Source: Rhodothermales bacterium (GTDB lineage: Bacteria > Bacteroidota > Rhodothermia > Rhodothermales > VXPQ01). Taken from it: a stretch of DNA of 64,000 nt. Positions within the stretch are counted from its first letter, which is position 1; every line of letters begins with the position of its first letter. The position numbers and the translations under genes are program-made. Location: positions 325,005 through 389,004 of the forward strand of contig OZ220686.1 in assembly GCA_965116435.1 (NCBI GenBank), in the 5' to 3' direction. The notes beneath the pieces were generated by a model that worked only from the letters and a program-made list of their open reading frames with translations, made no database searches and was not told where the DNA came from. Of the stretch, positions 18,384 to 26,929 are shown one piece after another.

Positions 18384-18704
18384 ATGCCATTTCTTTTCGC
18401 CAAGACACGCAAGCGCCTCTCGGCCAGGGAAAATTCCGTGCGCGCAGAAAGGGACGTAAAGGAAGTCAGCCTGCCGAAAGATGCAGCCAGCAGGCGATCG
18501 ATATACTTCGAAACGGAAATGGAAGCGGTCGAAGAGTGTATGCGCATCCATAAGGAATCTGCCGGCCGGACGATCTCCATACGGCAAAGAACCCCTTACG
18601 GAGGGTATCGCGTCTACAGCCTTCCCATTGAGTTGGCTGTAGACGAGTTGGCCAAACCCATCATACCCCAAATCCCAGGCAATATTTTCGCACGGCGCAA
18701 ATGA
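18384..18704 (+). CDS. Hypothetical protein (106 aa)
   Basis: ATG-initiated ORF whose stop overlaps the next ORF start (ATGA at 18701-18704). No motif was recognised. Confidence 0.35.
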   Translation: MPFLFAKTRKRLSARENSVRAERDVKEVSLPKDAASRRSIYFETEMEAVEECMRIHKESAGRTISIRQRTPYGGYRVYSLPIELAVDELAKPIIPQIPGNIFARRK

Positions 18705-19138
18705 GCGAAGAATTAACGCAAGATCATCAGGAAGCATTGGTTCCGTCCGACGACCTCGATGAAGAAACGCTCCAGGATTTTTTCTTCCTGGAGAAGAGTC
18801 GGGTAGCCGCCGACCGCGAGCGGGTGCAGCTGGGAGTCAAGGCAATCGAAGCCCAGAGTGCTGCTGACCAGCGCCTATACGAATTTCAGATGGCTCAGTT
18901 GGACAAAGGGTATGAGGATAGACGGGACAGGTTCAAAGCGGCGCTAAAAATTATATGGGTCGCATTTGTATTTGTCATGCTGGGCGCTGGAGCGTTGTTC
19001 TACCTTCTTTTTGCAGGCAACGAACTTCAGCAGGATATGGCGTTTGAACTCCTGAAGTTGTTAGGCGCCGCCGTTGCAGGGGGGGGGGCCGTTTCGCTTA
19101 CTGCCAACGCCCTTAAAAAAGCCTCCTCCATGGTATAA
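18701..19138 (+). CDS. Hypothetical membrane protein (145 aa)
   Basis: Acidic coiled N-terminal part, then a TM helix IIWVAFVFVMLGAGALFYLLF. It is coupled to the upstream ORF and contains a G10 tract (AGGGA). Confidence 0.45.
   Translation: MSEELTQDHQEALVPSDDLDEETLQDFFFLEKSRVAADRERVQLGVKAIEAQSAADQRLYEFQMAQLDKGYEDRRDRFKAALKIIWVAFVFVMLGAGALFYLLFAGNELQQDMAFELLKLLGAAVAGGGAVSLTANALKKASSMV
19079..19088 (+). repeat. Homopolymeric G10 tract inside the 18701-19138 ORF
   Basis: Counted directly. Confidence 0.95.
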
Positions 19139-22305: not shown

Positions 22306-22383
22306 GCAGGATTGAGGAGCCCGGTTCAGCAAGCCCGCGCTGGCGGGAGTTGGCTGTGTATGCCGCCGAAATCGTCTTTCACA

Positions 22384-22911
22384 TCATCCCCATTTTCTTG
22401 CATACTTGGCCTTGGCATATACTGGGCAGATGAATGTAACCGTAATGCCAATTTCCATTAACGCATTATTATAGCCCCACCATTCGCTGTCTGTCGCTTG
22501 CAGGATCGGTGGCTTTGCCGGGTGCGCATTTGCAACAGCCACAAACTTGTGATCCGATTTGTCGAAATTTTTCAATTTGTCATGGACTGGAAATTCGTCG
22601 TATGAATCACCGTTTTTGGTGATGGTTACCCGGTCATCTTCAGGTAGACCCCAGCGATTATCGTGAACCCACTTCATGAAGGCATTACCCATTCCCTTAC
22701 GACCACTGATGGAAAGATTTTTTAAATATTCGTCATAGATTTCATCCCCGGAATCAATAACTAATGCACCTTTTTTTATAACATGATCAATGGCTTTGAC
22801 ACAATTTTGGACGCAATCGAACAGGTTGTCCGGAATGTCCTCTGAACCGATTGCCAAATTTGCAATCACCGGTACATTCGTGTCCACGATACATTTTGGC
22901 GGCCTATTCAT
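22384..22911 (-). CDS. PIN-like nuclease domain protein (175 aa)
   Basis: The N-terminal sequence CIVDTNVPVIAN is a PIN beta-1 acidic motif. Further conserved-position acidic residues occur in VIDSGDEIYDEY, FDKSDHKFVAVANA and LQATDSEW. The start ATG overlaps the upstream ATPase stop (ATGA). The region is low in GC. Confidence 0.6.
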   Translation of the reverse strand: MNRPPKCIVDTNVPVIANLAIGSEDIPDNLFDCVQNCVKAIDHVIKKGALVIDSGDEIYDEYLKNLSISGRKGMGNAFMKWVHDNRWGLPEDDRVTITKNGDSYDEFPVHDKLKNFDKSDHKFVAVANAHPAKPPILQATDSEWWGYNNALMEIGITVTFICPVYAKAKYARKWG

Positions 22912-24314
22912 CTGGATTCCTCCGGCTTTCCTGCGTGATTTTTGGCACGTTTTTTCAAGGCCGCCAAGGCTTGTTGTGTGATGTCTCCCATCTCATCGCC
23001 AAAGAAATTTTCGGGCCATTCCTTGATGTTTCCAAAGATATCAATTTGAAGGGGATTGAGCGTAGGAGGGGCCTTTGAAATATTCGCAAAATATGCGGAC
23101 ACGTTCTCTTGTGAGACAGCATCCTCAGCAATGCGTCTCTGCAAGCGTCGCAGGAAATATTCCGAGTGGGTTTCAATGATCAACTGGATATTTCTATCCG
23201 CCCCATTTTCTCTGGAATTGATCACGTCAACCAGCACATCGGCCAATGCCGATTGAGCGCTCGGATGCAGATGAATCTCCGGTTGTTCCATGAGAATTAT
23301 CGACCCGGGAGGCGCATAGAAACACTGCACGAGAACCGGCAAAACCTGCGAAATGCCGAAGCCGACATCCGGAAGATCAACCCAGTCCCTTGAACCTTTC
23401 GTACGAAGCTTTACCTCGTATTCTTGCCGCTGTTTGGATATGGGATTGACCTTGAATGCCTCAATCAGGCCCATTGCCTTGAGCTTGCTGGCGATAATTT
23501 CCTCGAAAGATTTGTATCGGCATCTATACCCAATGCTTATTTTTCGGTTTCGTGCCGCGAGAATAGCGGCGACCGTATTTTCTCCCGCATAGCCCACATG
23601 TTCGGGCTCAATGCCTGTCCATGAATACAAACGTTCAGCTTTTGTACGAAGCGGTCCTAAATAACAGATTGATCTGAACAATTTTTCATGGCGCAAGTTT
23701 AGTTGTTGCACAAATTCGGCATTTTGATGATAGGCAACTACCTCGTCAGGGAAGCCATAAAATCGAACCGGCGCCCCGGGATACCAGACACGTCCCTGTT
23801 TACGCTTTAGGGAATAATTCGCGGCTTCAACCTTGTAGGCAGATTTTGCGTCAGACTTTCTTTCCATTCCAATGGAAAGCTGAGTTTTATCATCTCCGAT
23901 CAATTCATATTTAAGCGCATCTACAGCCAATGTATGCCGATCTTTATCTCCCAGCCCCACTCCTACCTCGAACGTCAGTTCGTTTCCCGAGTACAATTGT
24001 TCCGATACGGAATCTTTAATCGTTAGCGAATTCGGCAGCGACCATCGATACTCGAAAGCGATGTTGTTTGCCGGGTCACGGCGAAACACCATCTCCTCGT
24101 AGGAACCAAGCTGAACAGCGGAATTTTTTGCACCAGGATAGAAGACCGCCTTTCGATCTGGAGACTCGACGGTCTGCTTCAGCATCATCAGGAATTGGCT
24201 TATGCTGGACTTGCCGGAGCTGTTAGCGCCAAAGAACAGGGAGATAGGAGCCATGCGAATGGCGCCGGTATCCTTCCAGGCTTTGAAGTTTTGTATTCGT
24301 AACTGCTGTAGCAT
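22908..24314 (-). CDS. ABC/AAA (AAA_15/21-type) ATPase with DUF3696-like C-terminal domain
   Basis: Begins LRIQNFKAWKD, with Walker A GANSSGKSS, Walker B ILMEQPEIHLHP and H-loop IIETHSEYF. The C-terminal tail is LNPLQIDIFGNIKEWPENFFGDE. 468 aa, in a low-GC region. Confidence 0.75.
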   Translation of the reverse strand: MLQQLRIQNFKAWKDTGAIRMAPISLFFGANSSGKSSISQFLMMLKQTVESPDRKAVFYPGAKNSAVQLGSYEEMVFRRDPANNIAFEYRWSLPNSLTIKDSVSEQLYSGNELTFEVGVGLGDKDRHTLAVDALKYELIGDDKTQLSIGMERKSDAKSAYKVEAANYSLKRKQGRVWYPGAPVRFYGFPDEVVAYHQNAEFVQQLNLRHEKLFRSICYLGPLRTKAERLYSWTGIEPEHVGYAGENTVAAILAARNRKISIGYRCRYKSFEEIIASKLKAMGLIEAFKVNPISKQRQEYEVKLRTKGSRDWVDLPDVGFGISQVLPVLVQCFYAPPGSIILMEQPEIHLHPSAQSALADVLVDVINSRENGADRNIQLIIETHSEYFLRRLQRRIAEDAVSQENVSAYFANISKAPPTLNPLQIDIFGNIKEWPENFFGDEMGDITQQALAALKKRAKNHAGKPEESR

Positions 24315-24505
24315 ACTATTGGGAAGCGGCAGAAACGGATTGAAAAACTGGACAGTTACTCAGACGATCTTAAGTGCGGTGCATGCTCCTCTCGAAAAAG
24401 CCCCCTTGCAAGAGACGCTGATCTGTAATATACGTGGTTTGGCGTAAGGTTGTCAAGATTTGAACAGCGCTTTTCATTAAAGTTCAGGATTTCCCTTCTG
24501 ACCGG

Positions 24506-26929
24506 CTACCCCTCAAGTCTTTTCAACAGGATTTTTCGGACCAGGTCGGGTTTTGCGGTTCCGCCGGTGCGTTGCATGACCTGTCCCATGAAGAAGCCGA
24601 GGAGGCCCTTTTTGCCGGAGCGGTAGGCGGCCGCCTTGTCGGGAAAGGCCCGCAACGCTTCGTCCGCGGCGGCGCTCAGCGCATCCGGGTCCGTGACTTG
24701 CCTCCAGCCCTTTTCGTCCACGATGGCGTCGGGGTTTTTCCCGGCGGCCAGCATTTCGGCGAGCACGTCCTTGCCCGTGCGGGCGGAAATAATGTCCTCG
24801 TCCACTAATTCGACGAGGCGGGCCAATTCATTGGGAGGCAACGAGAAAGCGCCTTCTTTCCGTTCGATTTTTTCCCACGGCAATGCGTTGAGTATCCAGT
24901 TCGCGAGGGCGCTTGCGCGCGCGGGATCGTTCGCCGCCGGCGCATGGCAGGCCAGCGTGGCGCGGAAATACTCGTGTGCGTCCGGTTTCTGAGCCAGCCC
25001 AAGCGCCACGTCATCGGGCGCCCCGGATTCCACGTTGGCCGAAAAGCGCGCCCGCTCCTCTTCCGAAAGATTCTCGATCCGTTCGGCAGGCGTGGGCGAA
25101 GGAGCAACCTGTTTCTTGCGCGGGGACGTTGGCGTGGTCGGGGACGTCGTTGTTTCAGCGGCCGGACTTCGGCGTGCATCCCGGCGGCCATGCTCTATCT
25201 TGGCCCAGGTATCCCGCAACGGAACGATCCGGTTGAACACGGGGCGCCCCGGGGTCGAATCCTCCGGGGTCGAATCCTCCGGGGTCCAATCCACCGGGTC
25301 TCTCCAGAAATATCCTTCCCGTTCGAACTGATAGCGCTGCGCGGCGTCGTCCGCCGCCACCCCCGGCTCGATCAGGGCGCGGCGCAACGTCACCAGCGAA
25401 TCGGGGTTCAGGCATTCCACGAAATCCTCTTCGGCCTCCGGGTCCGGCGTGCGGAAAAGCCGGTCGTACAGTCGCACTTCGACAGGAAGGGCCCGCTTCG
25501 CCGAGACCCAGTGGATGACGCCGCGCACCTTCTGTCCGTCGGGCGCGTTGCCGTCGTGCGTTTCCGGTTCGTACGCGCACCGCAATTCGACAACTTCGCC
25601 CGCCTCGTTCCGCACCGCCTCCTCGCACCGGATCACGCCGGCGTATCGCAGGCGCACGGCCCGGCCCGGCGCCAGTCGGTAATAGTTCGCGGGCGGATTT
25701 TCCCGAAAATCGTTCCGGTCGATGTAGAGTTCCCGTCCAAACGGCACGGCCCGCGACCCCTCGCGCGGCACGTCGCGCGGCCAGAAGGGGGCGTCCAGCG
25801 CGTCCTCCCGGTCCGGGGGATAGTTGACGAGGGTCACTTTCAGGGGCCGCAGCACGCACATGACGCGCGGCGCCTCGAAATTCAGCGCGTTCCGAACGGT
25901 GTAATCCAGCAGGTCCATGCCGATGCGGTTATCCGCCCTCGCCACCCCGATTTCCGCGCAGAAGGCCCGGATCGCTTCCGGCGGAACGCCCCGGCGGCGC
26001 AATCCCGCCAGCGTCGGCATCCGGGGATCGTCCCAACCCGCCACATGCCCTTCCTCGACCAGCCGCCGCAATTTGCGCTTGCTCATCACGGTATAATCAA
26101 GGTTGAGCCGCGCAAATTCATACTGCCTTGGACGCGGCGCCTCCACGCACCGGTCCACGAGCCAGTCGTATAATTCCCGGTTGTTGTCGAACTCAAGCGT
26201 GCACAAGGAGTGCGTGACGCCCTCTATGGCGTCCGACAGCGGGTGGGCGAAATCGTACATCGGGTAGATGGGCCACGCATCCCCGGAGCGGTAATGATGC
26301 GCGTGGCGAATCCGGTAGAGGAGGGGGTCGCGCATTTTCATGTTGGGAGACGCCATATCCCCCCGGGCGCGCAAGACATGTGCTCCATCCGCGTATTCGC
26401 CGCGTTTCATGCGGCGAAAAAGGTCCAGATTTTCTTCCGGGGACCGGTTTCTGTAGATGCTCGCCTGGCCCGGCTCCGTCACCGTGCCCCGCGTTGCGCG
26501 AATGGCCGCCTCGTCCTGACTGTCCACATAGGCGTGGCCCGCACGGATCAGGCCCTCCGCAAAGGCATACAGCCGGTCGAAATAATCCGATGCGTAGTAT
26601 TCCCGATCATCCCAGTCGAAACCCAGCCAGCGCACGTCCTGTTTGATGGATTCGACGTATTCGACGTCTTCCGTCTCGGGGTTGGTGTCGTCGAACCGGA
26701 GGTTGCACGCCCCCCCGAAATCCTGCGCCAGCCCGAAATTCAGACAAATGGCCTTGGCGTGCCCGATATGCAGATACCCGTTCGGTTCGGGCGGGAACCG
26801 CGTGGCGACCCGCCCCCCGTACGTATCCTTTCGGAGGTCGTCTTCAATAATTTCCCGGATGAAATGCGAACCCGGTCCGGGCGCGTCGGCGGCGGGAGAC
26901 CGAGGATCGGGCGATTCGGTTTTCGTCAT
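24506..26929 (-). CDS. glnS: Glutamine--tRNA ligase fused to a C-terminal GatB/YqeY-like domain
   Basis: Class I HIGH motif (PEPNGYLHIGHAK) and VMSKR (KMSKS-like), within a GlnRS-type core of about 560 aa. A low-complexity linker (TPEDSTPEDSTPG...TTTSPTTPTSP) follows, and then a YqeY/GatB-C-like tail (..KGLLGFFMGQVMQRTGGTAKPDLVRKILLKRL). Confidence 0.9.
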   Translation of the reverse strand: MTKTESPDPRSPAADAPGPGSHFIREIIEDDLRKDTYGGRVATRFPPEPNGYLHIGHAKAICLNFGLAQDFGGACNLRFDDTNPETEDVEYVESIKQDVRWLGFDWDDREYYASDYFDRLYAFAEGLIRAGHAYVDSQDEAAIRATRGTVTEPGQASIYRNRSPEENLDLFRRMKRGEYADGAHVLRARGDMASPNMKMRDPLLYRIRHAHHYRSGDAWPIYPMYDFAHPLSDAIEGVTHSLCTLEFDNNRELYDWLVDRCVEAPRPRQYEFARLNLDYTVMSKRKLRRLVEEGHVAGWDDPRMPTLAGLRRRGVPPEAIRAFCAEIGVARADNRIGMDLLDYTVRNALNFEAPRVMCVLRPLKVTLVNYPPDREDALDAPFWPRDVPREGSRAVPFGRELYIDRNDFRENPPANYYRLAPGRAVRLRYAGVIRCEEAVRNEAGEVVELRCAYEPETHDGNAPDGQKVRGVIHWVSAKRALPVEVRLYDRLFRTPDPEAEEDFVECLNPDSLVTLRRALIEPGVAADDAAQRYQFEREGYFWRDPVDWTPEDSTPEDSTPGRPVFNRIVPLRDTWAKIEHGRRDARRSPAAETTTSPTTPTSPRKKQVAPSPTPAERIENLSEEERARFSANVESGAPDDVALGLAQKPDAHEYFRATLACHAPAANDPARASALANWILNALPWEKIERKEGAFSLPPNELARLVELVDEDIISARTGKDVLAEMLAAGKNPDAIVDEKGWRQVTDPDALSAAADEALRAFPDKAAAYRSGKKGLLGFFMGQVMQRTGGTAKPDLVRKILLKRLEG

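Follow-up and report, generated by a model that had tools for sequence, protein, structure and literature searches.

The stretch of DNA analysed here (the window) comprises 64,000 nucleotides (nt) of contig OZ220686.1 from a Rhodothermales bacterium and contains an AT-rich islet of two genes, coding for an ATPase and a small PIN-like protein. It is very probable that this islet is a horizontally acquired, stand-alone anti-phage system of the type HEC-03 (Hma-embedded candidate 03), truncated at its 3′ end from a three-gene cassette that encodes an ATP-binding cassette (ABC) ATPase, a PIN-like nuclease and an Rnl-type RNA ligase. Both proteins are members of the HEC-03 families, their genes are linked in other genomes, residues of a catalytic type are conserved, the composition of the islet is foreign, a stub of the ligase gene is left and the pair bears the mark of purifying selection. 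Defence activity and the requirement for both genes are taken from the literature on a representative from Pseudomonas cichorii and would apply to the window pair by analogy.

Identification of the gene pair as HEC-03

The ATPase matched the PADLOC profile HEC-03B with an E value of 4.7e-128 (426 bits; residues 1-458 against profile positions 1-454 of 458), and its next best PADLOC family was NsnB of the Menshen system (E 1.1e-57). For the small protein, HEC-03A was the sole PADLOC match (E 2.1e-25; residues 7-167 against profile positions 3-156 of 159). Both proteins thus match the two profiles of the system nearly from end to end. It should be mentioned that PADLOC-DB v2 (PDLC04147/PDLC04148) calls the ATPase HEC-03B and the small protein HEC-03A, whereas the text of the preprint describing the system uses the opposite labels. 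Payne et al. (bioRxiv 10.1101/2024.01.29.577857) defined HEC-03 as an ABC ATPase together with a PIN-domain protein; when a representative was cloned in Escherichia coli, at least two phages formed fewer plaques by orders of magnitude, and this protection needed both genes (10.1101/2024.01.29.577857). The tested proteins came from P. cichorii ATCC 10857 (Table S2 in 10.1101/2024.01.29.577857). The window ATPase is 38% identical to the tested ATPase WP_025259138.1 (E 9e-94) and the small protein 33% identical to WP_025259137.1 (E 2e-22), in both cases over nearly the full available length. The window pair is therefore a distant clade of HEC-03, but it shares the gene order, the ATPase gene being followed by the small gene with overlapping stop and start codons. 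The first-pass annotation of this DNA had known of no named system in which such an ATPase is paired with a PIN effector and had proposed the pair as novel. This is refuted by the PADLOC matches and the work of Payne et al.: both proteins belong to a system that already has a name. The pair adds one more instance of a published, experimentally supported defence system and opens no new category. What sets it apart is its place: HEC-03 was named for its position within Hma, whereas the window pair stands alone amid housekeeping genes of a GC-rich host, outside Hma and outside any defence island.

The description of the larger protein as an OLD/ABC-type ATPase with a DUF3696-like tail was borne out by Pfam, which gave matches to AAA_15 (E 8e-25; 88.6 bits, cut-off 32.1), AAA_21 (E 8e-21; 75.8 bits, cut-off 27) and DUF3696 (E 3.5e-8). 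The Walker A, Walker B/EQPExHLHP and H-loop motifs are all there and are invariant across 28 homologues; in the P-loop this applies to G29, N31, S32, S33, G34, K35, S36 and S37. A profile search of the sequences in PDB with the ATPase gave no match. Its AlphaFold 2 model was poor, with a predicted local distance difference test score (pLDDT) of 54, because the alignment was shallow and the sequences were too similar, and it was set aside.

Linkage, distribution and horizontal transfer

Relatives of the small protein are widespread. The search gave 653 word-index matches and, when done exhaustively, 1,038 clusters at 50% identity. Relatives are encoded in at least 508 species-representative genomes, which belong to Proteobacteria, Desulfobacterota, Chlorobi, Acidobacteria, Planctomycetes, Synergistetes and Verrucomicrobia and include a bacterium of the candidate phyla radiation and the archaeon Methanolobus. 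In 79 of the 80 best loci an ATPase gene directly precedes the small gene on its strand; in the remaining locus, the small gene is only 116 nt away from the end of the contig. The two genes thus belong together, as had been supposed from the window alone. Relatives from different phyla are still 58-74% identical in the small protein and 61-88% in the ATPase, which indicates frequent horizontal transfer under strong constraint.

Composition tells the same story. In the window the GC content falls to 0.43-0.50 over positions 22400-24400, compared to 0.62-0.70 on both sides; the mean is 46.9% for the gene pair, 62.8% for the flanks and 60.6% for the entire window. This confirms the AT-rich islet in GC-rich surroundings that the first-pass annotation had described; the horizontal acquisition that it had proposed is supported as well. 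Among 68 hosts, the GC content of the pair falls short of that of the flanks by more than 5 points in 37 and exceeds it by more than 5 points in only one. Distant relatives (33-41% identity) were found on 12 plasmids, ten of them conjugative or mobilizable. A search of the window locus itself found neither a tRNA nor an integrase, and direct repeats at its flanks did not go beyond chance. Metagenomic relatives of glnS, the upstream neighbour of the pair, were inspected for a comparison with an empty site; the closest were at most 63% identical and none kept the adjacency of glnS and the asparaginase gene.

In 36 of 79 loci the cassette is surrounded by genes of the bacteriophage exclusion (BREX) system. 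PglX is encoded directly upstream of the cassette in 22 of the 79 loci and BrxH just downstream in 24, and the order in the embedded loci is BrxC ... PglX - cassette - BrxH - PglZ. An example is L006:210-16276, and L004, L014, L017, L037, L041, L075 and L081 are arranged likewise. This frequent nesting between pglX and brxH is among the more useful outcomes of following the relatives. The window copy and its closest relative, a cassette in a metagenome-assembled genome of an uncultured Rhodothermales bacterium (L003), are stand-alone.

A third gene for an RNA ligase and its truncation in the window

In 75 of 79 related loci, an open reading frame (ORF) of about 229 amino acids follows on the same strand, about 3 nt after the small gene. 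The encoded protein belongs to the RNA ligases (PF09414, E 2.6e-34) and has a KxDG motif. Where at least 700 nt of room was available (71 loci), the ligase was near full length in 67, missing in three (L019, L046 and L048) and reduced to a remnant of 37 amino acids in one (L047). The distant plasmid-borne relatives that were opened show the same picture: four out of five have the order ATPase, small protein and "RNA ligase family protein", and the fifth, on the Acinetobacter soli plasmid pAS843-2 (L165:2142-4799), has an HNH endonuclease in third place. In this plasmid locus the ATPase is annotated as two pieces, an AAA family ATPase and a short DUF3696 protein. Coordinates of ligase genes are, for example, L004:10528-11217 and, on the plasmids, L163:5532-6233, L164:5504-6196, L166:4073-4672 and L167:4028-4720.

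The window has only the beginning of this gene. An alignment of the ligase starts of L003, L004, L006, L008, L021, L037 and L047 revealed a stub, GTGAAAGACGATTTC, that is identical to the start of the L003 ligase gene at 15 of 15 nt; after that, homology ends abruptly in GC-rich host sequence. At the other side, the homology to the L003 cassette begins at a common promoter block, TTGACAACCTTACGCC..ACGTATATTACAG, that is kept between the two. Since both the promoter block and the 15-nt stub match L003, the acquired segment can be described as promoter, ATPase gene, small gene and ligase stub. Its edge at 22368 is exact, and the opposite edge lies somewhere between 24457 and 24505. The window pair is thus a truncated three-gene cassette from which the ligase has been lost, a point that had escaped the first-pass annotation.

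The RNA ligase is without a model in PADLOC v2, and neither the HEC-03 preprint nor the examined supplements contain the word "ligase" (10.1101/2024.01.29.577857). Descent of the window pair from a three-gene form is thus a further difference to HEC-03 as published, and the association with a ligase is a lead worth following.

Strain comparison and selection on the two-gene form

The same truncated islet is present at the same site in two strain variants, L001 and L002, both from one metagenome. The islet with its spacers (window positions 22306-24505; two genes and two spacers, 2,204 nt summed) is 100% identical to that of L001, although 109 of 6,591 positions are different in the five flanking genes (0.9-2.5%). 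At the rate of the flanks about 36 differences would be expected within the islet, but none was observed. Possibly, the islet has spread recently by recombination among the co-occurring strains. The comparison with L002 revealed two differences in the ATPase gene and four in the small gene; both proteins are identical and, therefore, all six are synonymous. From these substitutions, the two-gene islet appears to be under purifying selection.

Is the small protein a PIN-like nuclease?

The first-pass annotation had assigned a PIN-type acidic quartet to the small protein. All motifs that it had quoted for the two proteins are indeed present, and the acidic ones of the small protein correspond to invariant or near-invariant columns in the homologues. 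Among close homologues D10, D53, E61, D117, D120 and D141 are invariant and E57 is conserved to at least 90%. In a set of 49 sequences with 32-57% identity, D53, D120 and D141 are still invariant, and D10, E61 and D117 are conserved to at least 90%. Only their spacing and the predicted secondary structure assign these residues to catalytic positions. The AlphaFold 2 model of the small protein was good (pLDDT 89.8; predicted template modelling score 0.87), and the acidic residues sit where strands end and helices begin; together with the order of strands and helices, this agrees with a PIN-like alpha/beta/alpha sandwich. A search of the structures in BFVD had a PIN domain-containing protein as top match (probability 0.77; template modelling (TM) score 0.45) and a PIN_53EXO protein at rank 4. 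Among the divergent members, PIN_3 was the sole recurring Pfam family, below threshold, in 6 of 49 members (best E 0.005); one of these matches covers profile positions 2-104 of 115 (E 0.049). The family consensus of the small protein had zero matches in Pfam, and the family profile did not match any sequence in PDB. Mining of 1.2 Mb of related loci for PIN proteins that could serve as comparators yielded two only.

Altogether, the small protein is PIN-like, with an acidic site that is apparently intact; a PIN fold is plausible, without a significant structural or profile match. Of the earlier assignment, the conserved acidic residues stand, and the fold was neither confirmed by such a match nor contradicted. 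Payne et al. presented a structural comparison in support of a PIN domain (10.1101/2024.01.29.577857), and this agrees with our reading. In one protein of 479 amino acids (P0385) the homologue of the small protein makes up the C-terminal part (residues 320-474), which may be a fusion with another domain.

Comparison with other ATPase-nuclease systems

The Menshen system (NsnA-NsnB-NsnC) is similar in two respects. The window ATPase is NsnB-like, being the same kind of ABC ATPase with a DUF3696 tail, and the partner has a PIN-like domain in both systems, which in NsnC is the N-terminus. However, the window has no gene for a DUF262/ParB-like NsnA, but glnS upstream instead, and its small protein is a single domain of 175 amino acids that lacks the C-terminal effector domain of NsnC. 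Moreover, the N-terminal PIN-like domains of NsnC, named inPIN, are devoid of catalytic residues and serve as docking modules (PMC12065111), whereas the acidic residues of the window protein are conserved. Since neither an NsnA gene nor a partner of the NsnC type with a fused toxin is present, membership in Menshen was rejected.

Septu, PARIS, Gabija and the OLD protein of phage P2 follow a common logic, an ABC ATPase as sensor with a nuclease as effector. The first-pass annotation had referred to this logic, and as a logic of defence it holds for the window pair; the HNH or TOPRIM partner of these systems was not found. Their effectors are HNH or TOPRIM proteins, that of the window is PIN-like. 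The window ATPase gave weak PADLOC matches to AriA and GajA, which cover the ATPase core motifs only, and the small protein had no match in Pfam or PADLOC to HNH (PtuB) or TOPRIM (AriB, C-terminus of GajA), which led us to reject Septu, PARIS and Gabija.

The third comparison is with VapBC, whose PIN-domain toxins cleave tRNA. The small protein shares with them the N-terminal (V/L)DTN(V/I) motif, and its four acidic positions are spaced in a comparable way: D7, E42, D98 and E119 of the VapC in 3TND presumably correspond to D10, E57 or E61, D120 and D141. It is, however, about 40 residues longer than VapC, with an insertion at about residues 89-112, and a gene for a VapB antitoxin is lacking in the window. 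Membership in VapBC was rejected, for the upstream gene codes for an ATPase of 468 amino acids and not for VapB.

A proposed mechanism

By analogy with Menshen, Septu, PARIS, Gabija and OLD, the following mechanism can be drawn. The ATPase would oligomerise and act as sensor of infection and as regulator, and the oligomer would hold the small PIN-like nuclease by means of the C-terminal DUF3696 helices. A phage cue, coupled to binding or hydrolysis of ATP, would then activate or release the nuclease, which would cut RNA, most likely tRNA or rRNA as do PIN enzymes of the VapC type. Cleavage of RNA would stop translation and, with it, the production of phages. In full cassettes the ligase would reseal breaks with 5′-phosphate and 3′-OH ends and limit self-damage. 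In the window this safeguard would be gone, and the pair would work as a two-gene system, like the HEC-03 of P. cichorii that was cloned as two genes.

The RNA target, the docking of the nuclease via DUF3696 and the role of the ligase are what we infer from the related systems. AlphaFold 3 models of Menshen place two DUF3696 tails of NsnB around the PIN-like domain of NsnC (PMC12065111), and after these models the DUF3696 module of the window ATPase is the proposed docking site of the small protein. Such an architecture of the complex is supported by the similarity of the ATPase to NsnB together with the published docking of NsnB DUF3696 and inPIN. For the ligase, there is an earlier proposal from another PIN_3 context, in which an RNA ligase neutralises nucleases. 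Metal-dependent PIN nucleases are expected to leave 5′-phosphate and 3′-OH ends, the substrates of Rnl-type ligases. Because this chemistry suits the ligase, it is a plausible arm for repair or an antidote.

It is tempting to go one step further. The common, probably ancestral form of HEC-03 might be a three-gene module whose ligase reseals the RNA breaks (5′-phosphate/3′-OH) made by the nuclease and thereby allows the immune response to be reversed; in that case the window would be a natural variant with the ligase deleted that is still under selection, its small protein perhaps with compensating changes near the active site (R121H, K143E, W147Y). We put this forward tentatively and hold it to be somewhat short of probable. 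If true, a nuclease and a ligase of matching end chemistry would constitute a damage-and-repair design within one immune module, and natural copies without ligase, like that of the window, would allow a comparison of reversible and irreversible versions.

Evaluation of alternative explanations

Several results weigh against the islet being a HEC-03 defence system with a PIN-like nuclease. Experiments have been done only on the system of P. cichorii, to which the clade of the window pair is 33-38% identical. The locus is outside a defence island: neither a defence island nor mobility genes were found around the window copy. For the small protein there was no Pfam PIN match above threshold, and a Foldseek search against PDB had no match with E <= 0.001; 1ye5 was the single entry recognisable as a PIN protein, with TM scores of 0.41/0.47. 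As a further comparator the sequence of Shigella VapC was confirmed against PDB 3TND, homologues were collected and 24 were aligned; hhalign against this VapC(fMet) alignment, a narrow set with at least 73% identity, aligned only the N-terminal DTN motif (probability 1.9%). Finally, the small protein of the window carries four substitutions at columns conserved to at least 95% (Q71R, R121H, K143E and W147Y), the most among 81 sequences with a median of 0, although these are small numbers in which kinship is ignored. Two of the four adjoin D120 and D141, and the activity of the protein may be altered. L047, the locus with the ligase remnant, has one of the next-highest counts among the 81 sequences, and the substitutions in both proteins may reflect a constraint that was altered after loss of the ligase.

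These substitutions also bear on the possibility that the pair without ligase is a decaying remnant, non-functional or silenced, that persists because the truncation is recent. Truncation 15 nt into the ligase gene would be in line with decay, as would the highest number of deviations at conserved columns in the window protein, with L047 among the next-highest, and the lack of other defence genes nearby. We nevertheless regard a remnant as unlikely, since neither ORF is disrupted, the Walker and acidic motifs are all in place and the promoter block is kept. Furthermore, three strain variants that are 1-2.5% apart in their flanks have the truncated form, with six of six coding differences to L002 being synonymous, and the tested HEC-03 of P. 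cichorii worked as two genes.

The pair could also be a toxin-antitoxin or addiction module, with a PIN toxin that the ATPase restrains (in full cassettes together with the ligase) and that stabilises the mobile DNA carrying it instead of sensing phages. The acidic set does resemble that of VapC toxins, Pfam annotates AAA_21 as a putative AbiEii toxin domain of type IV toxin-antitoxin systems, plasmid relatives adjoin Hok/Gef and AbiEii genes, and a nuclease-neutralising ligase has been proposed for the other PIN_3 context. But the protection by HEC-03 in E. coli was phage-specific, a VapB-type antitoxin gene is missing and about half of the relatives are embedded in BREX operons and not in mobile elements, so that such a module is quite improbable; addiction and defence are, moreover, not mutually exclusive. 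Least probable, and very much so, is that the small protein is an inactive PIN-like adaptor as in NsnC of Menshen, with the effector elsewhere or encoded by the lost third gene. This would explain why significant structural or profile matches to active PIN enzymes are missing, the PIN-like domains of NsnC set the precedent as docking modules without catalytic residues, and one plasmid relative has an HNH endonuclease in third position. Unlike inPIN, however, the family keeps D53, D120 and D141 without exception, and D10, E61 and D117 to at least 90%, even among relatives of only 32% identity; further domains are absent from the small protein, and the two-gene system of P. cichorii is active. 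None of the three explanations is favoured over a truncated, stand-alone HEC-03 system.

The locus and its surroundings

Both genes are found as described by the first-pass annotation (Table 1). Their overlap is 4 nt: in AGATGAAT on the minus strand, ATGA is common to the TGA stop codon of the ATPase gene and the ATG of the small gene. The small gene is translationally coupled to the ATPase gene.

Table 1 Features of the HEC-03 islet in the window (positions of the whole stretch).
Feature	Position	Strand	Description	Basis
ATPase gene	22908..24314	-	468 aa	intact ORF
Small PIN-like gene	22384..22911	-	175 aa	intact ORF
Walker A/P-loop	24204..24230	-	GANSSGKSS, residues 29-37	translation
DUF3696 C-terminal module	22974..23114	-	residues 401-447	Pfam PF12476, E 3.5e-8
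Ligase stub	22368..22382	-	first 15 nt GTGAAAGACGATTTC = VKDDF	DNA alignment of ligase starts
Predicted sigma-70-like promoter	24427..24456	-	TTGACA-18 nt-TATATT	promoter scan, 11/12 matches
Acquired AT-rich segment	22368..24456	-	promoter, ATPase gene, small gene, ligase stub	GC profile and L003 homology

The predicted promoter lies about 113 nt 5′ of the ATPase start codon. It was recognised by a sigma-70-like consensus, and the host may use other types of promoters. Between this promoter-like site and the ATPase start, within the 5′ leader of the ATPase gene, there is a terminator-like hairpin with a run of T residues after it (GTCTCTTGCAAGGGGGC TTTTT) at 24400-24416 on the minus strand; it could be the terminator of glnS, an attenuator in the leader or due to chance.

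The immediate neighbours are genes for an Asparaginase_2 protein with a twin-arginine translocation signal, only 78 nt away from the small gene, and for a glutaminyl-tRNA synthetase (GlnRS) with a C-terminal GatB/YqeY domain, with a spacer of 191 nt between glnS and the ATPase gene. Farther out, a DinB protein and a GT4 glycosyltransferase are encoded. GlnRS (24506-26929, minus strand; 807 aa) has its GatB/YqeY domain joined to the catalytic body via a low-complexity repeat region (PEDSTPEDSTP).

A second islet of lower GC content (0.51-0.55) is located at 18384-19138 on the plus strand and consists of two small overlapping ORFs of 106 and 145 amino acids, which had no match in Pfam or PADLOC. 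It is present in the window and in strain variant L002, not in L001, and the product of the ORF of 145 amino acids resembles a membrane protein.

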